A stretch of 64,000 nt of DNA from Candidatus Undinarchaeota archaeon (lineage in GTDB: Archaea > SpSt-1190 > DYHY01 > CAZGQF01), in NCBI GenBank assembly GCA_964527545.1, contig CAZGQF010000002.1:23452-87451 (forward strand). Direction: 5' to 3'. The notes under the pieces are model-generated. The model ran no database searches. It was not told where the DNA came from and was given only the letters and a program-made list of their open reading frames with translations. The translations under genes and the position numbers were made by a program. Below are positions 1,792 through 57,255 of the stretch, in pieces; the first letter of the stretch is position 1, and each line of letters begins with the position of its first letter.

Positions 1792-1880
1792 TGGGCCCGG
1801 AGGGATTCGAACCCCCGATCCACTGGTTTCTTCCGCAAAGACCGAAGCCAGTTGCCCTATCCAGACTAGGCCACGGGCCC
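1792..1880 (-). tRNA. tRNA-Arg (anticodon UCG) with ~14-nt intron after position 37
   Basis: Manual fold of reverse complement: acceptor GGGCCCG/CGGGCCC, D arm GCCT-AGTCTGGATA-GGGC, anticodon stem ACTGG/CCAGT enclosing 21 nt (7-nt loop CUUCGGA plus 14-nt insert), T arm GGGGG-TTCGAAT-CCCTC, discriminator A. Confidence 0.65.
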
Positions 1881-2293: not shown

Positions 2294-2369
2294 GGCCTTT
2301 TAGTTACTAATAGGTAGTAACATTTAAAAGAGCGCGTTGCGTAATTCAATTAGGGTAGGCGGAAAATCG

Positions 2370-22390: not shown

Positions 22391-22440
22391 GGAGCGGCCT
22401 GGTTCTCAAGATTTAAAAGAGGATGCGAAGCGCTTCTCCC

Positions 22441-23385
22441 ATGTGGCACGTCGCCCTGTTTGCCAGCTTCGTGGGCACCTACCTCCTCACTCCCGTGGTG
22501 GCAAAGCGGCTGGAGGAGGCCCGCATAACGGGCAACGACATGAACAAGAAAAGCAGGCCTGAGCTTCCCTCTCTCGGCGGCCTCTCCATAAGCGCCGGCT
22601 TTGTCTTCGCCATGCTGATCAACGTGGCGGCCCACAAGAACATACAGCTCCTCGCCGCAATGACGACCATTCTCGTCGTCACTCTCGTCGGCCTGGTAGA
22701 TGACCTCCTCCACACAAGCCAGCGGACCAAGGCCCTGCTCCCCGTTTTGGCAGCTGCCCCTCTGGTCGCCGTCAACGCAGGCAAGGCCTCAATGACCCTT
22801 CCCTTCCTGGGAAGCGTCGAGCTGGGCGTCCTCTATCCCTTGATTGTCCTGCCCCTCGGCATCACGGGCGCCTCCAACGCAGTCAACATGCTGGCAGGCC
22901 TGAACGGCCTCGAGGCAGGCCTCGGCGCCGTGATGCACGCGACAGTCCTCTTCACCGCCCTCAGCATCATGGGCGTCCATCCAGAGGCCTACTGGGCCGC
23001 CCTCATCTCCGCCTCCATGCTGGGCGCCCTCCTCGCCTTCCTCAAATACAACTGGCACCCGGCGAAGGTCTTCATAGGAGACGTGGGGACTCTCCCCATA
23101 GGCTGCGCCCTGGCTGCGGCAGTGGTCCTCGGCGACATGGAGAAGCTGGGCATAATCCTCATCGTGCCATACCTGTTCGAGTTCCTTTTGAAGGCGAGGA
23201 CGGGCTTCAAGGGCGAGAGCTTCGGCTTCCAGAGAAAGAACGGGACTCTCGGCACCAAGGAGGTCAACTCCCTCACCCACGTGGTGATGAAGGCTGGCAA
23301 ATTCACGGAGCCGCAGGTGGTTGCGGTGCTCCTCGGCATAGAGGCGGTCTTCGGCCTCCTCGCACTTTTGACCTTTGGAGCTTGA
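22441..23385 (+). CDS. UDP-GlcNAc:dolichyl-phosphate GlcNAc-1-phosphate transferase (AglH/MraY-WecA family, GT4)
   Basis: Polytopic; motifs GNDMNK, VGLVDDL, NAVNMLAGLNGLEAG; ATG at 22441 about 20 nt after TATA-like TTTAAAAG (leaderless). Confidence 0.75.
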   Translation: MWHVALFASFVGTYLLTPVVAKRLEEARITGNDMNKKSRPELPSLGGLSISAGFVFAMLINVAAHKNIQLLAAMTTILVVTLVGLVDDLLHTSQRTKALLPVLAAAPLVAVNAGKASMTLPFLGSVELGVLYPLIVLPLGITGASNAVNMLAGLNGLEAGLGAVMHATVLFTALSIMGVHPEAYWAALISASMLGALLAFLKYNWHPAKVFIGDVGTLPIGCALAAAVVLGDMEKLGIILIVPYLFEFLLKARTGFKGESFGFQRKNGTLGTKEVNSLTHVVMKAGKFTEPQVVAVLLGIEAVFGLLALLTFGA

Positions 23386-33873: not shown

Positions 33874-36800
33874 TCACTGGGAAGGCGGCGTCCACTGATT
33901 GCCTGTCGTCCCCGGCGAGCTTCCTGTCTCTTCTCCTTTAAACCCCCCGCTGGTGGTGGTGTCTCCTTCTCCCCCACCGGCTTGAGTCTCCTTTTCCAGC
34001 CTGTTCCCCACAGGTATGATCTCTTCCGCCATCAGTATCCCGTTCTCCACTCTCCCCTTCACCATGCAGGACATGTCTGAGAGACCCCCTTCTGAGTAGA
34101 CCTTTATGGAGCCTGAGTCATCTGTCAGGTTGCCGTTGTGCTCGTCGACCGCCTTCAGGTAGCCAGTCAGGTAGACGATTGGGTACTCGTCCGGGCTCTC
34201 GAGGACTTTGGCCACGTTGACACCTTCATCTTTCTTCGTCTTGTAGAGGTAGTAGCCGCCCCCTGCCAGGGCGAGGAGCAGGAGGACTACCGCCGCAATG
34301 ACGACGGGAGAGATGCCCCCTCCCGCCCCCTCCACGTCGACTTCCTCTTCCACCTCCTCGCAGCGGTGGGTGGAGGTGTTGCACTCCTCCCCTTCCGGAC
34401 AGCCGCAGTCCTCGCAGCAGACGTCCTCTTCGCAGAGGCCGTCCCCGCACCTTGGCACTCTCTTGGCGACTGCGGTTGTGGTGATCATGTTCAGGCTCCC
34501 CTGGTCCAGGTCCTCCAAGAACTGGTACCTGAATGTCTTGCCTATTGTGTCGAGCTGATAGGCGAAGACTGGGTCGTCTTCGAAAACTATGGGCTGGTCA
34601 AAGAACCTCAAGCTGTCGGCGTCCCCTGCCAGGTCCTTTGGCACAGTGACGACTAGGAGGGCGTTCTCTTTCGAGCTTCTCAGCTTTGCGCTTATGGTGA
34701 TGGTTGTGTAGTAGTTTGTCTGGCCTCCCACCTCCCACTTCACCACTTCGGCCTCCACCTCGAAGATCACCTCCTCGTTGATGGCCTCCATGTCGGTCTC
34801 GTTGGTGTAGTTCTTCGCCAGCTCCAAGGCGACGTCGCTCGTGGTCAGCATCCTTGGCTCGTAGCTGTCCACGACGCTTGCGGTCCCTATCGAGCTGTCC
34901 AGGCTCGAGATCAGCGTCTCAGCGTCGCTTAACTGTCCTGCCGCTATCATGCTCTCTATCTCCTCGATCACCTCCTGCTCGATCTCAAGCGGGATCCCGA
35001 GGTCCCTTATCTCCTCAATCTTGTCCTTGAGTTCCTGGAAGTCGGTCTCTGCCTGGCTGACCTCCTCTGTCTCGTTGCCCTCTTCCTCTTCCCCCTCCTC
35101 CTCTTCCTCATCGTCGTCGCCCCCTCCGCCTATGAACCCCCCGCCGCCGTTCAGGTCGGGCTCAACGTCGACGGCGACATCGACCTCCCTGTCGCAGGCC
35201 TTCAAGGTAACAGTCCCTTCGAACCCCTCGTCGTCGGTCGGGACGTAGATCTCTATGGTCCTCGACTGGCCGGGTGTGAGGGTTATCTCGTCCTCGAGGT
35301 CGGTATACATCTCTTCCTCGTCCTCGTCGATCTCTACCTCAAGGGTGGTGGCGACGTTGCCTATGTTCTGGACAGACCTCCTGCTGGTCCCGCCCACCGT
35401 TATGTCCTCGTTGTTGAAAGAGCAGTCCAAGATTGTGGGAATGTCAAAGGTCGCGGAAGAGTTGATTGTCTCGCCGCTGCGGGAGAGGGCCGTGTAGCTC
35501 GTCCCGCTGGTCAGGGAGGCGTAGACAGAGTAGGTGCCGGGCGGGTTGGTCCTGTTTATCTTTGTCCTGCTGATGTCGGCGTAGTCCCCGCTGGTCAGGT
35601 CGATGGCCCCGTCCCACGTGACAGGGTATTTTGTGTTGTTGATGACGAGTTCGCCGTCGTCGTCGAAGATCTCGAAGCGGTAGGTCGCAGTCGCAGTCGC
35701 ACCTGTGTTGTTGAAGAATCCCTTCTCTATCTCCACCCAGTCGCCTATCTCAGCCTCGTCCTGGTCCAGCTCTATGGGAACCACCGGCGTGTCGAGCAGT
35801 GTCACCGTGGTCGTGTCTGAGAATGGAGTGTCGAAGTAGAAGGTCCGGGTCATATTGTAGCGGAGTGTGTAGACTCCTGCAGGGTCCGAGATATCGAACT
35901 CGTAGTTGGATGAGAATGTGGTGTTTTCGTAGGGCATTAGGGTATCTGAGTCTGACCTGTCGGTCCTGAGCCCGACGATCTCTGTATCCAACCAGAACGA
36001 GAAACCGTAGTAGCTCTGCAGCACGACCGACAGGTTGAGCGGGTAGGCGACCTCCGCCTTGACAGGAGTGGCCCACTTCACGTCGCTCACGTTCAGCTTT
36101 TTCGTCTCGAACTCCAGGTTGTAGGTGAGCTCCGAATTTGCAGGCATCGTCGCGTTCTCAGTCCAGTTGAGCCAGCTCGGCCAGGAGAACTCGAAGGGGA
36201 CAGCGTCGCCGTTGTAGGTCAGGTCGTAAGGTGTGGTGTTGTAGGTCGGCGCCTCGAAGCTGACAGAGACGTTGTCTATCTCCTTGCTTGCCCTGTTCTC
36301 CAGTGTCAGCTCTTCAACCCAGCTCACGTGAGTCTCGTTTTCGCTTGAGAAAACAGTGTCGGTCTCCTCCGTGAGAGCCGGCGCGGGCAGGTCGTAGGTG
36401 ACGTTGAACTTCCGCGAAGAGCCGGCGCCGAGGAAGAAGACCTCCTTCGCGAAGTCCCCCGTTGTGCTCGACGAGTTGTCGCAGTCGTCGCAGACGGTCC
36501 AGTTGACCCCCCTTATGTTGGTCGCGTCGTGCGGGACAGGAAAGATGGCCTGTATCGTCCCGCCGATGATCAGGTCGTTGACCACTGTGACGTTCTGCGT
36601 CCACTTGATGGGCTCGCCCTCCACTATCTCAGCGTTTCTCCTGTCGGTTCCGTTAACGTTCCTGAGGGAGGTGGTGTTGTAGTCTATGAAATAGTCTCTC
36701 TTCTCGCCCGCAGAGAGCGTCCCCACGTCGAACCAGACAGTGTCGTTGGTGGAGTTCTCAATCTTGTCGTACGCAAGTGGCGTCCCGTCCAGCGTGACCT

Positions 36801-39366
36801 CCTCAACGCTCGAGTTGGCGTCGATCTCGACACTCACGAAGCCGAACTCTGCAGGAGACGCCTTTGAGTTGTTGAGGGAGAGCGTGTGGCGGACGTTGAT
36901 GGTGCTGGGCTGGGGGAAAGGCGGGTTGGAGTAGCCGCGGAACTCTATCTCTTCGCCTCTCGAGAAGTCGTCAGTGTCTATCTCGTAGGTCCCAGTCCAG
37001 ACAGGAGTGCTGTTCCAGTTGCCTGCCGCGTCCCTCACTATGAAGGTGGCGTTGACCTCCGTGGAGTTGGGGAGCGACGAGAAGAACTTGATGCAACGGC
37101 CGTCCTCCACGTTGAGAGTCTCAGGCGTCTGCGCCGCGCCGTCGAAGTAGGCCGTTATGTTGCAATGCGTCGCACCACTATTGTCGTCGCTGACGTTTGC
37201 GTAGAAGACTGGCCTGTCGTTGGCCACCGTTTCGTTGACGGACGGCGAGACGCCTGTCACGTTCGGGTCTGTCCCGTCCACGGCGAGGTCGAGTCCGACA
37301 GTCAGGTTGGAGTAGCTGAAGCTGTCGGTCGCGTTGAAAGAGAGAGTGTGGTCGCCGCTGCCTCCAGGTATCTGGCAGGCGAGCGAGTAGTTGCCGTCAC
37401 CCGCCGAGCTGTCGATCCCTGCGCCGTCGTCCTTGAGCTCCGTCCAGCTCCCGCCGAGGGGAGTCAAGTTGAGTGTGAAGTTGGTGACCAAGCCGATGTC
37501 CTCCACTCTCGCGAAGACCTCGATCCAGTCGCCAGGCTTCACGACTGTGTCGTTGACCATGACGTCCAGTACGTCCGGCGCCGACCTGTCGATGGTGAGG
37601 TTGACCCGCTGGCTTGAGTTGTAGTGGCCGAAGGTGTCGTTGGCGAAAAAGATGATTGTCTGGTTGCCTTCCTCTGCCTCAGGCACGGTGTAGCGGGCAG
37701 AGTGGTTGCCGTCGCCCCCTGCGGCGTCTGGCTGGGAGCCGTCATCAAGAAGGCGGGCAGTGTTGAAGTCAACAATGTGCACGTAGGAGTAGGTTCCCGA
37801 TGCGTCGTAGTAGGTTATCAGCTCGTCAGTGCCGTCACCGTCACTGTCGATGGTCCCTTCCACGTAAAAACTGCTGATTATCTTGTCTGCAGTTAGGTTG
37901 AAGACGACGCTCCTGTTTACGAACGGATCGAAAAACCTTGAGTTGCCATAGTTGTTGCTGTCCGTGTAGACCAGCGTCTCCCTGTTTCCGCCGTAAAAGG
38001 AGCCCTTGCTCTGCGTTGAGGTTGTCAGCTCTCCGAACACGATCGGCGTATCAGCAATCTGTGTCTGGTTGTCGTAGAACTTCGAGTCGAAAATAATCTC
38101 CTTGCTTCCGTCCCCGTCGCTCTCGATGGCGACCAGGGACAACGAACTGGAGACCAACTCTGACGTGTTGTAGTACTCTTGTGTCTGGTTGTCGAAGATG
38201 TGGAGGTAGCTCGTAGTCGCATTCGAGTAGGCGATCTCCCCTGCACCGTCTCCGTCGATGTCGCCGCACACGAACTGCGAGGACTTTATGCTCGTATTCT
38301 CCAAGCGCCCTGTGGCGTTTTCGTAGATCATGACCCATTGTCCTGTTTTGTTCCTGAACAGTATCTCATCCGCACCGTCGCCGTTCACGTCGCAGAGATG
38401 GAGATACCCTGAGGCGTAATCCGTCACTGAATATGTCGTATTGGTCGAGTTGTCGAGGACGGCAACGTAGTAGCTGCTCATGTCTTCCGTGACGTTCAAA
38501 TAGACCACCTCGTTCTCGCCGTCGCCGTTCACGTCCCCGACTTGAGGCACAAATCCGAGCCTGCCGGTAGAGTCTGTCCTGCCGTTCGCAAAGTCCCTTA
38601 TCTCGATGGGAAAGCCAGTGGACCAGCTGCCCTCGGAGACGTTGTTGTAGACAAGTTCGTCCGCACCGTCGCCGTTCACGTCGCCCGATCCAAGCATGGG
38701 TGACCCTGTGTAGGTGAGCACGCTCGTGTTTGTCGATGCATGGTCGAAAGGCATCAACGCCTTGACGCCTTTTACATCACCGTCCGAGTTGTTGGCCATT
38801 GCATAGAGCTCGATGATTGAACCGTTTGTGACCAGCGTCTGGTTGACAGTGGCGTTGACAGTCGGCCAGGTTAGGTTGACATAGGTGTAGTTCTCTGCGT
38901 AGCAGGGCGCGTCTGTCGCGTTGTCCCGGGCGGTCGCGTTCCAGGTCACGTTGCCGTCTTTCCAGGCAGACATGAGGAGGGTTATGTTCAGGTAGTCGCC
39001 GGCGGTCGCATTCGGATAGTTTTCCTTGGGCGTGCAGTTGACTTTCTCCCTGTAGCCGTCGCTGTCCGAGTCCCAGACGCCGCACTCCCAGGCAGTCCCG
39101 TTCGCCTTCCCGGTCTCGTTCGACCACCATGTCGCCTCGGCGTAGGTGACATTGTAGTGCTCTCTCGGCGAGGTGATGTTCGAAAGTTCTGTCATGTTCC
39201 AGGACTCCGGCCCCTCGTTCCAGAGGGTGAAGTTGTAGTAGCGGGGGAGGGCAGACCCCACGTAGGCCGTCTCGTTGACAGTGAGATTTGCCGCGGCCGA
39301 GGCCAAGCCTAGCAGAAAGAGCAGGACCAGACCTTGCTTCAACACACGGAAGCAACTACAGACCAT
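33874..39366 (-). CDS. Giant integrin-like surface glycoprotein (FG-GAP-like repeats, Cys-rich stalk, TM, cytoplasmic tail)
   Basis: Signal peptide from ATG 39366 (track ORF extends to 39678); several D-x-N/D-G-D-G-x-x-E repeats; many N-x-S/T sequons; acidic linker; Cys-rich RCGDGLCEEDVCCEDCGC; TM VVIAAVVLLLLALAGG; about 110-aa tail. Confidence 0.7.
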   Translation of the reverse strand: MVCSCFRVLKQGLVLLFLLGLASAAANLTVNETAYVGSALPRYYNFTLWNEGPESWNMTELSNITSPREHYNVTYAEATWWSNETGKANGTAWECGVWDSDSDGYREKVNCTPKENYPNATAGDYLNITLLMSAWKDGNVTWNATARDNATDAPCYAENYTYVNLTWPTVNATVNQTLVTNGSIIELYAMANNSDGDVKGVKALMPFDHASTNTSVLTYTGSPMLGSGDVNGDGADELVYNNVSEGSWSTGFPIEIRDFANGRTDSTGRLGFVPQVGDVNGDGENEVVYLNVTEDMSSYYVAVLDNSTNTTYSVTDYASGYLHLCDVNGDGADEILFRNKTGQWVMIYENATGRLENTSIKSSQFVCGDIDGDGAGEIAYSNATTSYLHIFDNQTQEYYNTSELVSSSLSLVAIESDGDGSKEIIFDSKFYDNQTQIADTPIVFGELTTSTQSKGSFYGGNRETLVYTDSNNYGNSRFFDPFVNRSVVFNLTADKIISSFYVEGTIDSDGDGTDELITYYDASGTYSYVHIVDFNTARLLDDGSQPDAAGGDGNHSARYTVPEAEEGNQTIIFFANDTFGHYNSSQRVNLTIDRSAPDVLDVMVNDTVVKPGDWIEVFARVEDIGLVTNFTLNLTPLGGSWTELKDDGAGIDSSAGDGNYSLACQIPGGSGDHTLSFNATDSFSYSNLTVGLDLAVDGTDPNVTGVSPSVNETVANDRPVFYANVSDDNSGATHCNITAYFDGAAQTPETLNVEDGRCIKFFSSLPNSTEVNATFIVRDAAGNWNSTPVWTGTYEIDTDDFSRGEEIEFRGYSNPPFPQPSTINVRHTLSLNNSKASPAEFGFVSVEIDANSSVEEVTLDGTPLAYDKIENSTNDTVWFDVGTLSAGEKRDYFIDYNTTSLRNVNGTDRRNAEIVEGEPIKWTQNVTVVNDLIIGGTIQAIFPVPHDATNIRGVNWTVCDDCDNSSSTTGDFAKEVFFLGAGSSRKFNVTYDLPAPALTEETDTVFSSENETHVSWVEELTLENRASKEIDNVSVSFEAPTYNTTPYDLTYNGDAVPFEFSWPSWLNWTENATMPANSELTYNLEFETKKLNVSDVKWATPVKAEVAYPLNLSVVLQSYYGFSFWLDTEIVGLRTDRSDSDTLMPYENTTFSSNYEFDISDPAGVYTLRYNMTRTFYFDTPFSDTTTVTLLDTPVVPIELDQDEAEIGDWVEIEKGFFNNTGATATATYRFEIFDDDGELVINNTKYPVTWDGAIDLTSGDYADISRTKINRTNPPGTYSVYASLTSGTSYTALSRSGETINSSATFDIPTILDCSFNNEDITVGGTSRRSVQNIGNVATTLEVEIDEDEEEMYTDLEDEITLTPGQSRTIEIYVPTDDEGFEGTVTLKACDREVDVAVDVEPDLNGGGGFIGGGGDDDEEEEEGEEEEGNETEEVSQAETDFQELKDKIEEIRDLGIPLEIEQEVIEEIESMIAAGQLSDAETLISSLDSSIGTASVVDSYEPRMLTTSDVALELAKNYTNETDMEAINEEVIFEVEAEVVKWEVGGQTNYYTTITISAKLRSSKENALLVVTVPKDLAGDADSLRFFDQPIVFEDDPVFAYQLDTIGKTFRYQFLEDLDQGSLNMITTTAVAKRVPRCGDGLCEEDVCCEDCGCPEGEECNTSTHRCEEVEEEVDVEGAGGGISPVVIAAVVLLLLALAGGGYYLYKTKKDEGVNVAKVLESPDEYPIVYLTGYLKAVDEHNGNLTDDSGSIKVYSEGGLSDMSCMVKGRVENGILMAEEIIPVGNRLEKETQAGGGEGDTTTSGGFKGEETGSSPGTTGNQWTPPSQ

Positions 39367-39403
39367 TATTAAAGCTTTAAAGGGGCAGAGGGAGTTCGGG
39401 CGG

Positions 39404-39646
39404 GTGAGAGTCGAGGTCAAAGTCAGAACCAGCGCCCAAAAGGAGAGGATTGAGCTTGAGGACGGCCGCCTCGTCGTCTCCCTCAAGGAGCCAGCCAGGA
39501 AGGGAAAGGCCAATCTTGCCCTCGTGAAGCTCCTCGCCGGCAGGGCGGGCTGCTCTTCTGCAGAGGTGGCCTTTGTCAGCGGCCTCTCCTCGCGGAGGAA
39601 AGTACTTGAGTTTCCAGACTGCGAGATAGAGAAGCTGCTCGGATGA
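39404..39646 (+). CDS. YggU-like (DUF167/UPF0235) small protein
   Basis: VEVKVRTSAQKERIE...GKANLALVKLLA...VSGLSSRRKVLEF matches DUF167 pattern; in-frame GTG at 39404 proposed (track ORF from 39275 overlaps the signal-peptide end of the giant gene). Confidence 0.45.
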   Translation: MRVEVKVRTSAQKERIELEDGRLVVSLKEPARKGKANLALVKLLAGRAGCSSAEVAFVSGLSSRRKVLEFPDCEIEKLLG

Positions 39647-41546: not shown

Positions 41547-42554
41547 TTGGCCACTTTCTTTCCCATGCGACTGCCGCGCGCCACACTCCTCCTTCTCTTC
41601 GTCAACCTGCTCGTCTTCAGGCTCGCGGCCGGCTCCTTCTTTGCTTCACCTCTCGTCTCAGAGATCTCCCGCTTCGGCCTCTCGCCCGCCAACCCGCTCT
41701 CTGTCTTCACCTACCAGTTCCTCCACCTCTGGCCAGCCCATCTCGCCACCAATCTCTTTCTCCTACTCGTCTTCGGCTCCATAGTGGAGGGGGCGGTCGG
41801 CGGACACAAGACGCTGGCCCTCTACCTCTGTGGCGGCGTCACCGGCGGCGTCGTCCATCTTTTCTTGGAGGGCGGGACGGTGGTCTCGGGCGCCAGCGCC
41901 AGCGTCTGGAGCGTGGTCGGGGCGGCCCTTGTTCTCCGCCCGATTCTCTCCTTCACTTCGTTCGCCGCTTCCCTGCTGCTCGTCCCTTTCGCTCTCCACC
42001 CGTCAGTGCAGTGGGCGAGAAGAAGCTGGGAGGAGGCGAGAGGCGAAGAGCTGGGAGCAGTGGTCTCCAGGGAGGAAGAGGCGAGAGGCGAGTTTTTCAG
42101 GACTGCGCAGGAGGTCGCGGAGCTGATGGAGAACAGGTCCTCGGCCGAGAGCGAAGCTGCGGCGAGGGAGGACGAGCTGGAGAGGCTGGAGGAGATGAAA
42201 AAGGCCGGAGAGCTCTCGCCCGAGGAGTATGAAGATAGGGCAGAGCCCCTCGAGGAGGCTTTGGAGGAGAGAGAGGCGGAGATACGCGAGCTGGAGGCGA
42301 GGGTCGAGGAAGAGGAGCGTCAGCTCAACCAGACGGGAGAGCAGCTCTCGCGCCTCTCAAGGCTCTCATCGTCGCTGAGAAGAGAGATGGAGCTCTTCTA
42401 CTACTCTTCCCAGCTTGAGCAGGAGACGGCCACAGCGGAAGCTCCGCACCTGGCAGGCCTCCTGACAGGCTATCTCATGGTCATTCTCTCGGAGCCGCTC
42501 GCCTTCGAGAGATGGAAAAGGTATTTTACGGACTGGTGCGGGAGTGGGCCATGA
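41547..42554 (+). CDS. Rhomboid-like membrane domain fused to charged coiled-coil region
   Basis: N-terminal polytopic domain with rhomboid-like HLxxNL...GxxxEG and GASASVWSVVGA; C-terminal approx 170 aa E/R/A-rich coiled coil. Confidence 0.5.
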   Translation: MATFFPMRLPRATLLLLFVNLLVFRLAAGSFFASPLVSEISRFGLSPANPLSVFTYQFLHLWPAHLATNLFLLLVFGSIVEGAVGGHKTLALYLCGGVTGGVVHLFLEGGTVVSGASASVWSVVGAALVLRPILSFTSFAASLLLVPFALHPSVQWARRSWEEARGEELGAVVSREEEARGEFFRTAQEVAELMENRSSAESEAAAREDELERLEEMKKAGELSPEEYEDRAEPLEEALEEREAEIRELEARVEEEERQLNQTGEQLSRLSRLSSSLRREMELFYYSSQLEQETATAEAPHLAGLLTGYLMVILSEPLAFERWKRYFTDWCGSGP

Positions 42555-43891
42555 AAGAGATTGTCGTGGGGCGTGACGAGTCGGATCGCCAGAGGTTCGG
42601 CGATACTGGCCTCTCTTACCTGGCCAAGCACTACGTGACCACCGGCGACAAGACCAACCTCGCCAACAAGGTGATGATGGACTTCGCCCGCCCCCACGTC
42701 GTCTTCATCTGCGGCAAGCGCGGACAGGGAAAGTCCTACACTCTCGGCGTGATGGCGGAGGAGATGACACTCCTCGAGCCGAAGCTGAGAAAAAGGCTGG
42801 CCAGCGTCATCTTTGACACGATGGGCATCTACTGGTCGATGAAGTTCCCCAACGAGAGGGGAGAGCCCCTCCTCAAGGAGTGGGACCTGGAGCCGAGGGC
42901 AGTCGACACCAATGTTGTCGTCCCCTTCGGCTTCGTCGACCAATATCGCGAGTGGGGAGTCCCAGTCGACGAGACTTTCGCCCTCAAGGCGAGCGAGCTG
43001 ACAGCCAGCGACTGGTGCGCCACCTTCGGCATCGACCTCTTTGACAAGATGGGCATTCTCATCGACCGCGTGGTGAAGAAGCTTAAGGAGGGGAGCGGGG
43101 ACTACTCGTTCGACGACTTTGTCGACGCTGTCGGCCAGGACGAGAGGGCCGACGTCTCCGTGAGGGACGCTGTGGAGAACCGCCTCATGGCTGCGGAGGA
43201 CTGGGGCCTCTTCCACAGGAAGGGGACGAGCCTGAGCAAGATAATCCAGGCAGGAAAGGTCAACGTCCTCGACATCTCTGTCTACGGCGGCGCCATAGGG
43301 GGCTGGTCGACCCGCTCACTCGTGGTCGGCCTCATAGTGAAGCGCGCCTTCGAGGCCAGGATGATGGCACGCAGGATGGAGGAGATGGGGGCGATAAAGA
43401 CGGCCCAGAGCGAGTTCCAGACTGAGGAGAAGCTCTACAAGGAGGCGGTCGAGAAGATGCCGATGACGTGGTTCTACCTCGACGAGGCGCACGAGATGAT
43501 GCCGCGCACAGGCTCCACTCCAGCCCTCGCACCGCTGGTCCAGCTGATCCGCGAGGGCCGCCAGCCCGGTCTCACGCTGGTCGCCGCCACGCAGCAGCCG
43601 GGAAAGATCCACACCGACATGATGAGCCAGACCGACCTTGTGGTCTCCCACCGCGTTACCTCTGTCCCCGACATGGGAGCGCTCAACAACATCATGGGCA
43701 CCTACATGAGGTTCAATCTTGAGAACTACCTCGCCTCCCTCCCCAGGGAGAAGGGGGCGGCAATCCTCCTCGACGACAATTCCGAGAAGGTCTATCCCAT
43801 CAGGATGCGGCCGCGCCTCTCCTGGCACGGCGGCGAGAGCGCGACGCTGCTGAGAAGCCACGAACAGGAGACCGTAGAGGGAGTGGGCTGA
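42551..43891 (+). CDS. HerA/FtsK-superfamily P-loop ATPase (DUF87-like)
   Basis: Walker A GKRGQGKS and Walker B WFYLDEAHE; ATG at 42551 overlaps the upstream stop (ATGA). Confidence 0.6.
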   Translation: MKEIVVGRDESDRQRFGDTGLSYLAKHYVTTGDKTNLANKVMMDFARPHVVFICGKRGQGKSYTLGVMAEEMTLLEPKLRKRLASVIFDTMGIYWSMKFPNERGEPLLKEWDLEPRAVDTNVVVPFGFVDQYREWGVPVDETFALKASELTASDWCATFGIDLFDKMGILIDRVVKKLKEGSGDYSFDDFVDAVGQDERADVSVRDAVENRLMAAEDWGLFHRKGTSLSKIIQAGKVNVLDISVYGGAIGGWSTRSLVVGLIVKRAFEARMMARRMEEMGAIKTAQSEFQTEEKLYKEAVEKMPMTWFYLDEAHEMMPRTGSTPALAPLVQLIREGRQPGLTLVAATQQPGKIHTDMMSQTDLVVSHRVTSVPDMGALNNIMGTYMRFNLENYLASLPREKGAAILLDDNSEKVYPIRMRPRLSWHGGESATLLRSHEQETVEGVG

Positions 43892-45772
43892 CTACTCCTC
43901 AAGCTTCGGGACCATCTTCTCAACCAGCAGTATGAGGTCGCGGATGTCCGTCTTTGTGGGCATCTCCTTCAGCTCCTCCTCCATAGTGCGGGCCACGTTG
44001 GAGATCCTGCGCAGGTCCGCCTCCATCTCCGAGAGCTTCTCCCTGGTCTCGTGGGGCGATGCCTCCTCCAGCCTCTCTATCTTGTCCAGGAGTTTCTCCA
44101 CGTGCTTTTCGTGGGACTCCACGCCCTTCTCCATCCTCGCCAGGTCGGCGGACGACGTGTTGACTTTGGCATTGACCTTCTCGACGCGGTCGAGAAGTGA
44201 GCGTATCTCCCCTCTAATTGAGGCCGCGACCTTTCTCGCCTCCTCCCCGCTGTCCATCGCCTTCATCTCTTCCTTGGTGACCGCCTTCTCGCCGAGCTTC
44301 TCGACCCTCTCGATCAGCGAGGCCTGAGCCTCGCCGATTCCCTTTACGCTCTTGGCGATGGTGTTGATCCTGTCGTTCAGTATGTCCCTCGTCTCCCTCA
44401 AGACGCCGACCTCCTTCTTCAGCTCGTCGCCCGGAACAGACTCCAATCTCTTCTTCATCTCATGGAGCGGCTCCTGGAGCGCCTTCTCGACCATCTCGCG
44501 CTCCCTCTCCTTGCTTCTCTCCATCCTGATCTGGAGTTCGTCAATGACCTCGCCCATCTCCGATGTTTTTTTCTCCAGTCTTGAGAAACGGTCGTCCGCT
44601 TCCATCCCTGCCAGGATGCGCTGGTTCTGGTCCACGACCTCCTCCAGGCGGTCGAAGTCCTCCCTTGCCCTGTCCAGGCTCGCGCCCATCCCCTTCATCT
44701 TCTCTATCTCGCCCTGGAGGTGCTCTTCTCTCTTGCTCAGCTCCTTCAGCGCGTTCATCACCCTTTCGCTCGATGCGACAGTCTCCTTCCCGCCGACTGT
44801 CTTGATCTCGTCCTTGAGGTCTTCAACCCCCCGCCTCAAGTTCCTCTCTGTCTCCTCCAGCTTCTCCGCCAGCCCCTGCTGGGCCGACTCGACCTTCTCT
44901 ATCCTGGCCATCCCGCCGCCTGCTGCCTTGGCTGCCTCCTCGACGGCCTCCAGCTTCGCCTCCAGCTTCTCCGCCCTCGCCTTCCCCGTCTCCTCGACCT
45001 CCCTTATCCTCTCGACAAGGCCCTCCTCCACAGTCTTGCTCAGCTCCAGCTCGCTCTTCAGCTCCTCCCTCTCTGTGGCGCCCCTCCTTATCTCCATCAG
45101 CTCCTTGCTGACTGTGTTGCTCAGCTCCGAGAGGTTCTCCACTTTCGTTTCCAGCTGTTCGCACTTGTCGTGGAGCCGCGAGGTAAGCTCCATGTTCTTG
45201 CCGAACTTCTCCCCAAGGGAGCCGGCCTTCTGGGAGAGCTCCATCTTCTCACTCTCGAAGGCGAGCGTCGACTTCTCCAGCTTGTTGAGCCTCCTCTCTA
45301 TTGCGTTGATCGAGCTTATCAGTGTCTCCCTGACATCTGAGAAGAGCCGGATCCGCTCGTTGAGCTGGTCCATCTTCCTCTCGAGCTCCGTGTCGTCGAG
45401 CTTCTCCGCGATGGCGGAGAGCTGTGACTCCCTTTTCTTGGTCTGCGCCGAGACCATTTTCACTTCTTTGGAGAGCCTTGCTATGGCGGACTCTATGTCT
45501 GACTGCTGGCGCCCCCGCGAGACTATCTCGTCGCTTATCCTCTCCAGCCTCTTCTGGAGCTCCCTGACCTCCTGCCTGGCCTTCTGGTCCTCTCCCGTCT
45601 CCGAGAACTCGAGGACCCTCTTCCTTATCACGCCGTAGGCCTTGGAAAGCTCATCCAGCCGCTTGGACTGCGCGGAGAGCCTTCCGTCCAGGGCCTCCAA
45701 ACTCTTGGCGAGGCCGTCTTTCTCTTTTCTACCCTCTCTCGGGCCGAGCAGATCGTCTATAACGTTAGCCAT
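43892..45772 (-). CDS. Long coiled-coil protein (~625 aa)
   Basis: Continuous heptad-like E/K/R/L-rich sequence without TM or nucleotide-binding motif; start at ATG 45772; 8-nt overlap with upstream gene. Confidence 0.55.
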   Translation of the reverse strand: MANVIDDLLGPREGRKEKDGLAKSLEALDGRLSAQSKRLDELSKAYGVIRKRVLEFSETGEDQKARQEVRELQKRLERISDEIVSRGRQQSDIESAIARLSKEVKMVSAQTKKRESQLSAIAEKLDDTELERKMDQLNERIRLFSDVRETLISSINAIERRLNKLEKSTLAFESEKMELSQKAGSLGEKFGKNMELTSRLHDKCEQLETKVENLSELSNTVSKELMEIRRGATEREELKSELELSKTVEEGLVERIREVEETGKARAEKLEAKLEAVEEAAKAAGGGMARIEKVESAQQGLAEKLEETERNLRRGVEDLKDEIKTVGGKETVASSERVMNALKELSKREEHLQGEIEKMKGMGASLDRAREDFDRLEEVVDQNQRILAGMEADDRFSRLEKKTSEMGEVIDELQIRMERSKEREREMVEKALQEPLHEMKKRLESVPGDELKKEVGVLRETRDILNDRINTIAKSVKGIGEAQASLIERVEKLGEKAVTKEEMKAMDSGEEARKVAASIRGEIRSLLDRVEKVNAKVNTSSADLARMEKGVESHEKHVEKLLDKIERLEEASPHETREKLSEMEADLRRISNVARTMEEELKEMPTKTDIRDLILLVEKMVPKLEE

Positions 45773-46463
45773 CTTCCTTGAACTCCACGAAGGTCTTTGT
45801 GGGGCAGAGCCCTTCAACTCTCTTCTTTCCCGCGCCCCCTATCGCGACCAGGGCGAAACAGCCCTGGAGACGTGACTGCTCTGAGAGAACAGTTAATATT
45901 GCTTCTGCAGAGCGCCCCGTCCTTATGACGTCGTCGACGAAGAGCGTCTTCGTCGAGGAGCTGCAGACCTCTGCAGGCAGGTAGAGGGGACGGGCGGTCC
46001 CCTTCTCGTCGAAGATGTTGATCTCTATGTAGTCTTTCACTCCCAGCTTCTTTCTCTCGCGGAGGTAGCCGATCCTCGCCCCGATCTCCTTTGCCAGCAG
46101 CGTGGCGACGGGCAGGCCGTCCTCCGTGGTGACTACCAGTTCCACCTTTTCGTAGTCTCCAGCCACCGCTTTTGCAATTGAAGAGAGCAGCTTAACGTCT
46201 GTTAGGAGGTCGATGTCGTTGATGAACCTTCCGAACTTCAATATCTTGCTTTTCGCCTCTTCCTTCAACCTTCCCCCATAGAGGGAGATTATCATCCCAC
46301 TCTTCTCCTGGTTGGGCAGTACCCTGCCCTTAACGTAGCGGTTGAGGACCGTTATGGGGAGGCCGGTCTCGCCGGAGAGCTTCTTGTAGGTCTTCTCCCT
46401 CTTCTCCCTCTTCAGGAGCTGGACTGCCCGGAGAGAACGTTTTACCCTTCCCAGCCTTCGCAT
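45765..46463 (-). CDS. HTH plus phosphoribosyltransferase-like regulator (GfcR/PyrE2-like)
   Basis: N-terminal HTH (TYKKLSGETGLPITVLNRYVKG) and C-terminal PRTase motif TLFVDDVIRTGRS. Confidence 0.5.
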   Translation of the reverse strand: MRRLGRVKRSLRAVQLLKREKREKTYKKLSGETGLPITVLNRYVKGRVLPNQEKSGMIISLYGGRLKEEAKSKILKFGRFINDIDLLTDVKLLSSIAKAVAGDYEKVELVVTTEDGLPVATLLAKEIGARIGYLRERKKLGVKDYIEINIFDEKGTARPLYLPAEVCSSSTKTLFVDDVIRTGRSAEAILTVLSEQSRLQGCFALVAIGGAGKKRVEGLCPTKTFVEFKEDG

Positions 46464-46543: not shown

Positions 46544-47542
46544 ATGCTCCCTGACAAGCTGGAGGAGGGCGACGAGGTCAGAGTCATCGCACCGTCCAGG
46601 TCGCTCTCCATAATCTCTTCCGACGTGAGAAAGCTGGCTGAGAGAAACCTCGAGTCCCTCGGCCTGGAGGTCACATACTCTGAGCACGCCGAGGAGTCGG
46701 GCGAGTTCAGATCGCCTTCGCTCTCCTCCCGCCTCTCCGACATACATGCCGCCTTCTCTGACTCGGGCGTGAAGGCGATACTCTCCTCCATTGGTGGCTG
46801 GAACGCCAATCAGCTGCTTCCCCATCTCGACTACTCCCTCATAGCCCAGTGCTCCAAGATATTCTGCGGCTACTCTGACATCACCGCCCTCCAGAACGCC
46901 ATCTATGCAAAGACGGGCATGGTCACTTACTCAGGGCCGCACTTCTCGTCCTTCGGCATGGAGGAAGGCCTTGAGTATACAGTCGAGTATTTCAGGAAGT
47001 GCCTCTTCTCGGAGTCGCCATTCGAGATACTGCCTTCGCCCCGATGGAGCGAGGACGAGTGGTTCATCGACCAGGAGGACAGGACTTTCATAGACAACCC
47101 AGGCCACTTCATCATAAACGAGGGCCTTGCGAACGGGGAGATAGTCGGGGGAAACCTCGGCACGTTCTCCCTTCTCAAGGGAACAGAGTACATGCCAGAT
47201 CTCGAGGGCAAAGTCCTCTTCTTCGAGGACTGCCTTGAGTCGCCCACATCATATCTCTGTGACTTCGACCGCGAGCTCACCTCCCTCATGCAGCAGCCCG
47301 GATTCGAGGACGTGGAGGCCATAGTGCTGGGCAGGCTACAGTCCGTGAAGGGTCTGACCCGCCAGCGCCTCAAGGAGAAGCTTGTTCTCCTGGTTGAGGC
47401 CAAGTCTGAGCTCGACAACATTCCAGTGATCGGGGGCGTCGACTTCGGCCACACCACCCCCCAGATCACTTTCCCAATAGGCGGCACGGTCGAGATAGCG
47501 GCAGAAGGAGACGAGACTGAGATAAAAATGATGATGCACTGA
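46544..47542 (+). CDS. LD-carboxypeptidase (peptidase S66, MccF/LdcA-like)
   Basis: GDEVRVIAPS N-terminus, GYSDITAL nucleophile region, FGHTTPQ C-terminal His motif. Confidence 0.6.
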   Translation: MLPDKLEEGDEVRVIAPSRSLSIISSDVRKLAERNLESLGLEVTYSEHAEESGEFRSPSLSSRLSDIHAAFSDSGVKAILSSIGGWNANQLLPHLDYSLIAQCSKIFCGYSDITALQNAIYAKTGMVTYSGPHFSSFGMEEGLEYTVEYFRKCLFSESPFEILPSPRWSEDEWFIDQEDRTFIDNPGHFIINEGLANGEIVGGNLGTFSLLKGTEYMPDLEGKVLFFEDCLESPTSYLCDFDRELTSLMQQPGFEDVEAIVLGRLQSVKGLTRQRLKEKLVLLVEAKSELDNIPVIGGVDFGHTTPQITFPIGGTVEIAAEGDETEIKMMMH

Positions 47543-55377: not shown

Positions 55378-57255
55378 ATGGCGGCCATGAAAAAGGCAGT
55401 CCTCTTTTTGGCCTTGATCCTTTTGACGCCCGCCTTCGCGGAGACAATTAGTGACGCCTGCGGAAACGGCGTGGGATGGAGCGACAATACGGCAGAGCCC
55501 CATTGCGAAACGCAGGACTGCTGCGCCTGGTACCAGACGACACATGTCCACGACCTCGGCGAGATCGCCTCCGGCCAGCTCGAGGTCGAGTTCATGCCCA
55601 GCTTCTCTGCTGGCTGCCAGCCCGGCCCGGGGAGCGGCATCTGGGTCTCCGAAGGCGGCCCGGTTGAAGACGACGAAAGCTGGATGCAGTGGAGCTGGGA
55701 GAAGATCTACACGATCACCGAAACCACGCAGTCTGAAGGGGGCTGGTGGCACAAGTACTCTGAGACGTTCCAGGTCTCAAACACGCGATACGTGAAGGTC
55801 TCCATCGAGAACTGCTACAACGACTACTCCAAAGCCACTCTCTCCGCGGACGAGCCCGCAGCTGAGTGCGGGAACGGCATCATCGAGGAGGGCGAGATGT
55901 GCGAAAGCGACGCGGACTGCTACGAAGGCGAGTGCATCGATTGCCAGTGCTTCGCGTCTACGTCTGTCTGCGGCGACGGCATCTTATCATCAGACGAAGA
56001 GTGCGAGACCGACGCAGACTGTCCAACAGACATGGCCTGTGCAGAGTGCGAGTGCATCGACTCCGTCTGCGGCGACGGCATCCTCTCAGCTGACGAGATG
56101 TGCGAGACAGATGACCACTGTCCGCCGGGCTTGATCTGCGCCGAGTGCGAGTGCATCGAGACAGGCTCTGTCTGCGGCGACGGCATCCTCTCAGCTGACG
56201 AGATGTGCGAGACAGACGACCACTGTCCGCCGGGCTTGATCTGCGCCGAGTGCGAGTGCATCGAGACAGGCTCTGTCTGCGGCGACGGCATCCTCTCAGC
56301 TGACGAGATGTGCGAGACAGACGACCACTGTCCGCCGGGCTTGATCTGCGCCGAGTGCGAGTGCATCGAGACAGGTCCTGTCTGCGGCGACGGAGTGATA
56401 GAGGGAGAAGAGGAGTGCGAGTACGATTACGACTGTTTGGAAGGCGAGGAGTGCGACAACTGCGTCTGTGAGCCGTTTGAGCCGGTCTGCGGCGACGGCA
56501 TCCTCTCGTCAGACGAGGAGTGCGAAGACGATGGAGACTGCGACCAGGGCGAGTTCTGCGAGAACTGCGAGTGCGAGTCTCCTGTTTGCGGCGACGGAGT
56601 GATAGAGGGTTGGGAGGACTGCGAAGGCGACTGGGACTGCATGGAGACCGGCGAGACCTGCATAGACTGCAGCTGCATCCACACAGGCTCTGTCTGCGGC
56701 GACGGCGTGATAGAGGGAGAAGAGGAGTGTGAGTACGATTACGACTGTCTGGAAGGCGAGGAGTGCGACAACTGCGTCTGCGAGGAAGCAGGTCCTGTCT
56801 GCGGAAACGGCATCGTGGAAGCGGGGGAGACTTGCGAGAGCGACATGGACTGCGCCGGCGACTTCTACTGCGACAACTGTGAGTGCAAGCCGATTGCCCC
56901 CACGCCGGAAGAGGGGGTGGGCCAAGAGGAGCCAGTTAGGTGTCCGGGCAGGCCGGACTGCGGCGACGGCATACTCTCCGCTGACGAAGAGTGCGAGTCG
57001 GATGGCGACTGCATGGCTCCTTTCTCGTACTGCAGCTGCTGCGAGTGCCTGTCGACCTGCGGCGACGGCGACGTCGACGCGGGGGAGGAGTGCGAGTCGG
57101 ACCTTCACTGTGGAGAAGGTAGTGAGTGCGTCGGCTGCAGGTGCGTGAGGGAGGGGGTCGGCGGGGGTTCCGGACAGACCGAACAGCTCAACAGGATAGC
57201 TGAACTCTTGGAGGAGCTGATCTCCATACTGAGGGGCCTTTTCGGCGGTCAGTAG
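55378..57255 (+). CDS. Secreted cysteine-rich repeat protein (CGDG-x-EECE-x-D-x-DC repeats)
   Basis: Signal peptide MAAMKKAVLFLALILLTPAFA; about 12 repeats of approx 35 aa each beginning (V)CGDG; start at ATG 55378. Confidence 0.65.
   Translation: MAAMKKAVLFLALILLTPAFAETISDACGNGVGWSDNTAEPHCETQDCCAWYQTTHVHDLGEIASGQLEVEFMPSFSAGCQPGPGSGIWVSEGGPVEDDESWMQWSWEKIYTITETTQSEGGWWHKYSETFQVSNTRYVKVSIENCYNDYSKATLSADEPAAECGNGIIEEGEMCESDADCYEGECIDCQCFASTSVCGDGILSSDEECETDADCPTDMACAECECIDSVCGDGILSADEMCETDDHCPPGLICAECECIETGSVCGDGILSADEMCETDDHCPPGLICAECECIETGSVCGDGILSADEMCETDDHCPPGLICAECECIETGPVCGDGVIEGEEECEYDYDCLEGEECDNCVCEPFEPVCGDGILSSDEECEDDGDCDQGEFCENCECESPVCGDGVIEGWEDCEGDWDCMETGETCIDCSCIHTGSVCGDGVIEGEEECEYDYDCLEGEECDNCVCEEAGPVCGNGIVEAGETCESDMDCAGDFYCDNCECKPIAPTPEEGVGQEEPVRCPGRPDCGDGILSADEECESDGDCMAPFSYCSCCECLSTCGDGDVDAGEECESDLHCGEGSECVGCRCVREGVGGGSGQTEQLNRIAELLEELISILRGLFGGQ
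56065..56379 (+). repeat. Three near-perfect 105-bp tandem repeats inside the Cys-rich protein gene
   Basis: Unit GTCTGCGGCGACGGCATCCTCTCAGCTGACGAGATGTGCGAGACAGA(T/C)GACCACTGT...ATCGAGACAGGCTCT begins at 56065, 56170 and 56275; one mismatch between copies. Confidence 0.85.

Follow-up and report, generated by a model that had tools for sequence, protein, structure and literature searches.

A giant archaeal surface protein: a predicted propeller head that is nested and dispensable, an unnamed cassette next to the membrane, and a tail with a predicted OB fold

The 64,000-nucleotide window analysed here, from a Candidatus Undinarchaeota archaeon (contig CAZGQF010000002.1, positions 23,452 to 87,451), encodes on its minus strand (33874..39366) a giant protein of 1830 amino acids (aa) counted from ATG 39366, the numbering used for residues throughout. 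We propose that it is a type-I membrane-anchored, heavily N-glycosylated surface protein that may serve as a stalked binding protein, adhesin or lectin-like receptor, and we put the probability of this reading at about 0.5. Three things are new in this protein: its propeller head is nested and dispensable, the cassette beside its membrane helix is unnamed and recurs in other surface proteins of archaea, and its cytoplasmic tail is predicted to contain an OB fold.

The giant protein belongs to a three-member family

A word-indexed search of 5.8 billion proteins returned one full-length relative, P0002, which has 1813 aa, is 50% identical and is colinear end to end. When a profile of residues 700-1830 was run exhaustively with HMMER against 1.84 billion cluster representatives, one further orthologue emerged, P0037 (1388 aa). 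All three giant genes directly adjoin a DUF167 gene, and the gene in the window is flanked by pyrI and DUF167. The P0002 locus (L002) contains a conserved block of ~15 genes that includes DNA primase DnaG, a rhomboid, a HerA-like ATPase, pyrI/pyrB, carA/carB and DUF2070. Between the window and L002, identity is 68-89% for housekeeping neighbours and 48-50% for the giant protein. Faster divergence than that of housekeeping genes is typical of exposed proteins. The conserved block and the difference in identity indicate that the giant gene is vertically inherited and fast-evolving, and that it is not a pseudogene or a chimera.

A pattern scan of the GTDB species representatives with the family alignment gave 98 pattern matches and no relative, and a scan of JGI metagenomes gave one generic FG-GAP locus only. 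Scanned with the DNA ligase of the window, the GTDB representatives gave only bacterial ligases with 32-37% identity (Patescibacteria/CPR, Blastocatellia and Gammaproteobacteria), which says little about taxonomy. PyrI, DnaG, DNA ligase, CarB, MsrA and DUF2070 of the window each form a singleton cluster at 90% identity among ~15 billion proteins. Together with the lack of a match in the GTDB representatives, this points to a sparsely sampled lineage.

The features of the gene are as follows; structural assignments are from AlphaFold2 (AF2) models, with confidence given as the predicted local distance difference test (pLDDT), or from the method named.

39375..39381, minus strand: TTTAAAG TATA-like box within the 37 bp that separate the giant gene from the divergent DUF167 gene; read from the sequence
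33874..39366, minus strand: whole gene, ATG to stop, 1830 aa; probable start TTG 39342
39289..39366, minus strand: signal peptide, residues 1-26, hydrophobic core GLVLLFLLGLASAAA; from hydropathy, conserved in P0002 and P0037
38917..39288, minus strand: N-terminal beta-sandwich domain, residues 27-150; predicted all-beta, pLDDT ~70-80
38713..38916, minus strand: N-terminal half of the Ig-like domain D0, residues 151-218, interrupted by the propeller; from the alignment of the spliced halves to D1
37750..38712, minus strand: seven FG-GAP/VCBS repeats, residues 219-539, with blades anchored at 229, 278, 326, 369, 415, 459 and 507
37582..37749, minus strand: C-terminal half of D0, residues 540-595, with choice-of-anchor X motif 1 (LLDDGSQPDAAGGDGNHS); NCBIfam NF041940
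37273..37581, minus strand: D1, residues 596-698, an uninterrupted Ig-like domain that carries choice-of-anchor X motif 2 and is a paralogue of D0; NF041940, hhalign and splice alignment
35170..37272, minus strand: sequon-rich stalk, residues 699-1399, about seven segments of ~100 aa; boundaries inferred from sequence and linker patterns
35056..35169, minus strand: acidic Gly/Asp/Glu linker, residues 1400-1437, net charge -18; from the sequence
34888..35055, minus strand: three short helices, residues 1438-1493, predicted at 1438-1455, 1464-1475 and 1479-1493 with pLDDT >90
34459..34887, minus strand: membrane-proximal beta domain, residues 1494-1636, signature (I/V)PK..A......RF...P.(I/V).(E/Q).DP
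34354..34458, minus strand: eight-Cys knot, residues 1637-1671, RCGDGLCEEDVCCEDCGCPEGEECNTSTHRC; pLDDT 60-75
34243..34311, minus strand: transmembrane (TM) helix, residues 1686-1708, with GGGISP before it and YKTKK after it; hydropathy up to 2.57, predicted helix 1687-1708
34009..34185, minus strand: predicted cytoplasmic OB-fold domain, residues 1728-1786, net charge about -7
33877..34008, minus strand: Gly/Thr/Ser-rich, poorly conserved C-terminal end, residues 1787-1830; predicted disordered

The propeller and its nesting in an Ig-like domain

Residues 219-539 consist of seven repeats of 43-49 aa. Each combines a D-x-N/D-G-D-G-x-x-E loop with a hydrophobic strand and two to three more strands. 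The first-pass annotation had pointed out calcium-loop-like repeats reminiscent of FG-GAP propeller blades, and all four of the loops that it quoted are present. The motif Dx[DN]xDG occurs 6 times in the whole protein compared to 0.15 times expected from shuffles. It is exact in blades 1-4 and 7, whereas blade 5 reads ESDGDG (DTDGDG in P0002) and blade 6 is degenerate (YGGNRETLVY). The Pfam family FG-GAP matched at 26.8 bits (gathering cutoff 22.1), FG-GAP_3 scored 25.3 bits against a cutoff of 26.9 in four stretches, and NCBIfam PA5033_fam gave a partial match (E 1.2e-8). The sequence relatives of this region all belong to the VCBS/FG-GAP group of secreted or surface proteins, and the nearest are generic bacterial repeat proteins with 22-37% identity over parts.

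In the AF2 model, whose input alignment held partial-propeller segments of distant relatives, blades 1 to ~5 reached pLDDT values of 75-90. A Foldseek search against the PDB returned beta-propeller proteins as nearly all of the best 50 matches listed, at low TM-scores of 0.2-0.4. Ranks 1-5 were chains of the KICSTOR complex, which we take to be ITFG2, an FG-GAP propeller; integrin alphaV stood at rank 36. The structure prediction was in line with the suggested propeller in its fold matches and in blades 1 to ~5, and fell short for blades 6-7, where pLDDT was below 50. The assignment of residues 219-539 as a predicted propeller of the VCBS/FG-GAP supercluster is well supported by the sequence.

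The sequence on both sides of the propeller was compared with the Ig-like domain D1 that follows it. NF041940 (choice-of-anchor X) matched at 34.6 bits (cutoff 25) over two stretches, ~540-560 and 643-679, and residues 540-595 aligned with the second half of D1 with an hhalign probability of 95.8%. Residues 151-210 joined to residues 537-595 aligned with D1 over 102 aa with 30% identity (E 1e-11), straight across the splice point. Because the spliced flanks align with D1 across the junction, they make up one Ig-like domain, D0, which is paralogous to D1 and holds the propeller in one of its loops. The AF2 secondary structure of D1 is all-beta, at low confidence. In P0037, the protein runs from the N-terminal domain straight into D1 and lacks exactly D0 and the propeller (~residues 152-596). 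Hence the head is a cassette that can be gained or lost, and it is dispensable for the conserved function of the family.

The domain that precedes D0 has a DSDSDG loop and a Cys95/Cys111 pair. It has no Pfam or NCBIfam match and no relatives outside the three-member family, and a word-indexed search with the N-terminal 658 aa found generic FG-GAP proteins only.

Membrane topology and glycosylation sites

The giant protein has two hydrophobic segments only, at residues 1-26 and 1686-1706, in agreement with the signal peptide and single TM helix proposed earlier. The ectodomain between them had also been described as heavily decorated with sequons, and the counts agree: 79 of the 80 N-x-S/T sequons lie between the hydrophobic segments and one lies in the tail. 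The ectodomain count compares with 21.5 +/- 4.1 in 1000 shuffles (z ~14). Sequon density is 4.4 per 100 aa in the giant protein and 0-0.8 in the cytoplasmic proteins of the window. Sixty-one of the 80 sequons fall at aligned sequon positions in P0002; their retention at 50% identity is a sign that selection acts on the sequons as such. The positive-inside rule and the distribution of the sequons together suggest a type-I topology. The tail that follows the TM helix was present as first described, at 124 aa rather than ~110 aa. The ectodomain is extremely acidic, with a net charge of -199 and an isoelectric point (pI) of 4.05.

A gene for a GT4 (AglH-like) glycosyltransferase lies in the window at 22423..23385. 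Glycosyltransferases of this type start archaeal N-glycan assembly. At the left edge, an open reading frame (ORF) that runs off the window (2..1378, plus strand) carries 18 sequons over its 438 aa, at 4.1 per 100 aa a density like that of the giant protein. It ends in a hydrophobic anchor (...AAFPLLFLVALTFLLKSWSG*) and has no Pfam match. This ORF encodes a second surface protein rich in sequons and an alternative candidate for the S-layer protein.

Stalk, linker and membrane-proximal cassette

The stalk is conserved among the three family proteins. Its matches to families in the databases, Big_3_2, fn3_5, CHU_C, WxLIP and FxLYD, are all sub-threshold and all to beta-sandwich families, and its segments are presumed to be beta-sandwich domains. 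A profile of residues 590-1400 found no relative among PDB sequences. Internal repeats were not found in the stalk besides a weak match between segments D3 and D5; only D0 and D1 are clearly related.

Below the stalk, an acidic linker followed by a coiled-coil segment had been anticipated. The Gly/Asp/Glu stretch is there at residues 1400-1437; it is the least conserved part of the protein (14-20% identity to P0002) and is predicted to be disordered (pLDDT <50). In the AF2 model of the C-terminal 431 residues (mean pLDDT 76.7, and >90 for residues 1439-1639), the supposed coiled coil forms instead three short helices, predicted with pLDDT >90 as a bundle packed on the membrane-proximal beta domain. 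The beta domain has no Pfam, NCBIfam or PDB sequence match and represents an unnamed family. The Cys-rich membrane-proximal module noted earlier has eight Cys at 1640-1669, all invariant in the three family members, and the same pattern occurs in two further proteins, P0038 and P0039.

P0038 (1989 aa), from a different archaeal contig in the Logan metagenome assemblies, has the helices, the beta domain, the Cys knot and the TM helix at its C-terminus (E 1e-14 over profile positions 713-992). With the giant protein it has in common this C-terminal cassette, including the CC.DCGC pattern of the knot; its ectodomain is entirely different (Peptidase_S8), its tail is not detectably related and its genomic context is different. 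The P0038 gene (10001..15970 of locus L027) encodes an N-terminal S8 subtilase, a sequon-rich middle and a different cytoplasmic tail of 170 aa, and was found on nine contigs from one sample series. A relationship between its tail and the OB tail of the giant protein was rejected, as a hidden Markov model of the tail gave no match and hhalign gave a probability of 0.5%. In P0039 (500 aa), the beta domain is followed by the Cys knot on the outer side of an N-terminal anchor. The beta domain without the Cys knot adjoins the membrane anchor in small proteins of 178-453 aa, one of which is annotated as from a Woesearchaeota metagenome-assembled genome. Neither the cassette nor the beta domain nor the tail was found elsewhere in the window, among 681 six-frame ORFs. 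From its distribution, the cassette looks like a general juxtamembrane display module.

The Cys module had been likened to the CGDG repeats of a neighbouring protein, encoded at 55378..57255 on the plus strand. That protein is secreted and has 13 CG[DN]G six-Cys units of ~35 aa with a sub-threshold DUF4215 match. Three identical 105-bp tandem DNA copies suggest a recent repeat expansion, and it has zero sequons despite export, unlike the giant protein. The Cys module and the repeats both begin with CGDG and are acidic and Cys-rich, and BLASTP aligned them over 28 aa with an E value of 0.003. A profile of 11 repeats of the neighbour scored the Cys module at 0.7 bits, a score equalled by 8 of 500 shuffles. 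The giant protein has no DUF4215 match, and the Cys spacing of its module, with a CC pair and eight Cys, differs from that of the repeats. The likeness is compositional, and homology is not supported.

The cytoplasmic tail is predicted to contain an OB fold

In the AF2 model, residues 1730-1785 of the tail form a five-strand barrel with pLDDT 79-95, a closed beta-barrel that is superposable on known OB folds. None of the Pfam or NCBIfam OB families reached threshold with the tail; the best was stress_OB_fold (E 0.1). Three features suggest that the OB domain is cytoplasmic: the topology is type I, YKTKK comes after the TM helix, and the tail has a single sequon, which P0002 does not share. It is acidic in all three orthologues (net charge -4 to -7), and the cytoplasmic proteins of the window have pI values of 5.8-9. 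On account of this acidity, the predicted domain more likely binds protein than nucleic acid. Compared with the OB folds of RPA14, Ten1, RMI2 and the YgiW/anticodon-binding type, it is acidic, is joined to a surface glycoprotein on the cytoplasmic side, and lacks a predicted helix between strands 3 and 4 or after strand 5.

A proposed stalked binding protein or a possible S-layer component

In the reading we favour, the signal peptide would export the giant protein and the single C-terminal helix would hold it in the membrane. At the membrane would stand the cassette of small helical bundle, beta domain and eight-Cys knot, and above it the flexible acidic linker, followed by about eight segments of ~100 aa, presumed to be beta-sandwiches. 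Near the far end, the seven-repeat FG-GAP/VCBS propeller, with five to six Dx[DN]xDG calcium loops, would be shown from the loop of an Ig-like domain. The stalk may carry this head tens of nanometres from the membrane. The propeller would be an exchangeable, calcium-stabilised ligand-binding head, with a glycan or a protein on another cell or surface as its likely ligand, and the constant stalk and cassette would be the platform for display and anchoring. On the inner side, the OB fold would most likely dock a protein partner rather than nucleic acid. A long glycosylated stalk that holds a binding head far from the membrane is a standard prokaryotic adhesin design. The design is also that of VCBS members that bind, namely PVL, tachylectin and the integrins (PMC8023676). 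The loop of the superfamily binds Ca2+, and the fungal lectin PVL, tachylectin and the integrins are binding modules (PMC8023676, PMC3192720).

Several points weigh against this reading. The function is inferred from the architecture. Blades 6-7, D0, D1 and the N2 segment have pLDDT values below 50, so that a closed seven-bladed ring is not demonstrated, and the Foldseek TM-scores are low. Since one orthologue lacks the propeller, the function that the family has conserved must be independent of it. Residues 699-1399 have no significant family match, and the OB fold comes from one AF2 model built on a 10-sequence alignment with 3 rows covering the tail. Finally, the gene is surrounded by a stable set of housekeeping genes and all three related genomes contain it, which fits a core envelope component, such as an S-layer, at least equally well.

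The main rival reading, which we consider less probable than a binding role, is that the giant protein is the S-layer protein (SLP) of the organism or a stalk component of its S-layer. It would then be a 'colossal' Ig-rich SLP that builds the lattice of the cell wall, anchored by the C-terminal helix, with the domain array as its pillar and the propeller as a lineage-specific crown or insertion. The 292-kDa Pyrobaculum PySLP and its relatives, from the Thermoproteota, are N-glycosylated and have a signal peptide and many Ig-like domains, among which non-canonical domains are inserted; near the membrane they share a conserved element, and a TM helix lies at the C-terminus. They vary greatly in length by insertions, and the known ones end in a short basic tail (bioRxiv 10.64898/2026.08.21.746120). 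The architecture of the giant protein parallels theirs in size, signal peptide, presumed Ig-like arrays with insertions, N-glycosylation, conserved membrane-proximal element, C-terminal TM helix and length variation. Its very acidic and very sequon-rich ectodomain, its single copy in the window within a conserved housekeeping block retained in all three related genomes, and its faster evolution than that of housekeeping genes would also suit an SLP.

Against this, the giant protein has no similarity to a solved SLP or to a Pfam or NCBIfam S-layer family, and no PDB chain matched it at E up to 1 save for one spurious match of 53 aa. There is no detectable sequence relationship to PySLP, and the organism belongs to another lineage, with a DNA ligase whose closest solved structures are the Thermococcales and Archaeoglobus enzymes. 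The strongly acidic ectodomain, the 124-aa tail with its predicted folded OB domain in place of a short basic tail, and the helical bundle and Cys knot in place of a beta-hairpin also set it apart from PySLP. The same cassette anchors a subtilase in another archaeon and so would be a general anchor and not a mark of SLPs, and the second sequon-rich anchored protein, at the window's left edge, could equally well be the SLP. Codon bias is ordinary, with an effective number of codons (Nc) of 41.8 that ranks 19 of 27 genes, and gives no sign of exceptional expression; this is a weak test that does not discriminate between the readings. The combination of signal peptide, multidomain sequon-rich ectodomain and C-terminal anchor is shared with many surface proteins that are not SLPs and does not discriminate between the two readings.

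A bolder extension of the binding-protein reading, which we regard as doubtful, is that the cassette and the OB fold form an undescribed archaeal device that couples an exchangeable external head to a cytoplasmic partner. Such a device, in which the cassette would be a general platform for different heads, here a propeller and elsewhere a subtilase, might link outside to inside in the manner of integrins or act as a tether for the cytoskeleton or for segregation, and would have arisen independently of the integrins.

We consider it very unlikely that the giant protein is an extracellular enzyme or polymorphic toxin with an accessory VCBS propeller. VCBS propellers do occur in rhamnogalacturonan lyase, aldos-2-ulose dehydratase, the ABC toxin TcB and archaeal VCBS-containing toxins (PMC8023676), and ~700 aa (699-1399) of the giant protein have no assignment. 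No catalytic or toxin domain was found in Pfam, NCBIfam or PDB sequence searches, however, the C-terminus is a membrane anchor and predicted OB fold rather than a toxin cassette, and the flanking genes, pyrI and DUF167, are not immunity-gene-like.

The way in which an uncultivated archaeon attaches to a partner, a host or a mineral depends on its surface proteins, very few of which are characterised so far. The giant protein offers a clean case of domain nesting and head exchange, with the propeller unit in two genomes and absent in a third. It also defines an unnamed cassette of membrane-proximal domain and Cys knot that is reused by a protease-bearing giant, and a beta domain that is reused by small DPANN membrane proteins. 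A predicted folded OB domain at the cytoplasmic end of a surface glycoprotein is rare and makes transmembrane coupling in archaea testable. If the S-layer reading were true, 'colossal' Ig-rich S-layers would extend beyond the Thermoproteota.

Comparison with integrins and other VCBS proteins

Prokaryotic VCBS/FG-GAP propellers form a broad supercluster of which the integrin propellers are satellites (PMC8023676). Like other VCBS/FG-GAP proteins (PF01839, PF13517; PMC8023676), the giant protein has tandem blades of ~45-50 aa in which a Dx[DN]xDG loop follows the first strand. It differs from them in having exactly one seven-repeat unit rather than long tandem arrays, in the nesting of this unit in an Ig-like domain, in the loss of the loop in blade 6 and in the presence of sequons inside the blades.

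The description of the protein as integrin-like stood as a loose architectural analogy. Like an integrin alpha subunit, it has a membrane-distal, seven-repeat propeller with calcium loops, along with leg domains, one membrane-spanning helix and a tail on the cytoplasmic side, and its Ca2+ motif matches at positions 1, 3, 5 and 9 (PMC3192720). These similarities, the rank of alphaV among the propeller fold matches and the place of integrin propellers in the VCBS supercluster would be in favour of a true relative or functional equivalent of integrin alpha, that is, of a heterodimeric receptor for transmembrane signalling. We nevertheless consider such a relationship highly improbable. Integrin blades contain the Cage/FG-GAP motif, phi-phi-G-phi X13-20 P X2-15 G (PMC3192720). 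This motif was absent in every blade of the giant protein, with phi taken as aromatic or as general hydrophobic, and no blade has the GAP proline. The one G[AS]P tripeptide (residue 221) immediately precedes blade 1 and is not at the GAP position, and residues 201-560 contain 7 prolines. The absence of the Cage motif refutes membership of the integrin-alpha family.

Other features point in the same direction. The blades are shorter (43-49 aa) than those of integrin alpha, their nearest relatives are generic bacterial VCBS/FG-GAP proteins, and the propeller is inserted in an Ig-like domain rather than N-terminal and is dispensable in an orthologue. The Integrin_alpha2 (thigh/calf) family gave no match at E up to 1 for the whole protein or at E up to 10 for four segments of residues 801-1829. 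The tail, predicted to be a folded OB domain, lacks GFFKR, and the TM helix is followed by YLYKTKKDEG. No VWA or integrin-beta-like Pfam match, and hence no beta-subunit candidate, was found in the 52 window ORFs scanned besides the giant gene. Together, these results suggest that the giant protein is a VCBS/FG-GAP propeller protein and not an integrin homologue, and it has no bearing on the origin of integrins.

Gene model and integrity

The minus-strand ORF is unbroken from ATG 39366 to the stop at 33874-33876 (1830 aa), as first annotated, although the true start is probably TTG 39342, which gives 1822 aa (MKQGLVLLFLLGLASAAA). A copy of the protein in the public database, P0001, is 100% identical over 1822 aa and begins at TTG 39342, eight codons after the ATG. 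The N-termini of both orthologues align at the TTG start (MKQGLVLL / MKRVLVLV / MLKRGLILL). The TTTAAAG box, which may act as the promoter, lies ~36 nt upstream of TTG 39342 and only ~10 nt upstream of ATG 39366; by standard archaeal promoter geometry, this distance favours the TTG start. The mechanical ORF extends further, to 39678, and its first 104 codons overlap a plus-strand DUF167/YggU gene (39404..39646; 80 aa, Pfam E 5.5e-16) that is the same in two independent assemblies. The longer ORF was rejected as spurious on account of this overlap with a real gene.

The first-pass annotation had named a frameshifted pseudogene as the finding that would undo it; the gene is intact, and an artefact of any kind (a chance ORF, an assembly chimera or such a pseudogene), for which we found nothing in favour, is ruled out for practical purposes by the single unbroken ORF, the identical protein on an independent Logan assembly (SRR15425350) and in NCBI, the two colinear orthologues with 48-50% identity at the same genomic position, the conserved Cys and sequon positions, which indicate selection, and a codon usage that matches that of the neighbours.

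Other genes of the window

A rhomboid protease gene (41547..42554, plus strand) lies three genes from the giant gene, an arrangement kept in L002. As the TM helix of the giant protein opens with the helix-destabilising GGGISP, the giant protein might be a rhomboid substrate, which is pure speculation. The HerA/DUF87-like ATPase (42512..43891, plus strand) is 89% identical between the window and L002, far above any neighbour. It adjoins a 641-aa coiled-coil protein (43892..45817, minus strand) that is 47% identical to its L002 copy, and also a 232-aa protein with a weak helix-turn-helix match that is 69% identical to its L002 copy.

In this archaeal genome, an LD-carboxypeptidase gene (46544..47542, plus strand) encodes both the N- and C-terminal domains of Peptidase_S66 (E 1e-31 and 5e-27); the family is usually tied to murein peptide recycling. 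Genes for desulfoferrodoxin and 2-oxoacid:ferredoxin oxidoreductase in the window indicate an anaerobic organism. A tRNA of 89 nt (1792..1880, minus strand; Rfam 55 bits), whose anticodon was not resolved by ARAGORN, probably contains an intron. At 2337..3794 on the plus strand is a gene for an extremely Lys/Arg-rich protein of 485 aa with no Pfam match and no sequons. This region has the strongest purine skew and the lowest GC of the window (GC skew 0.29, AT skew 0.27).

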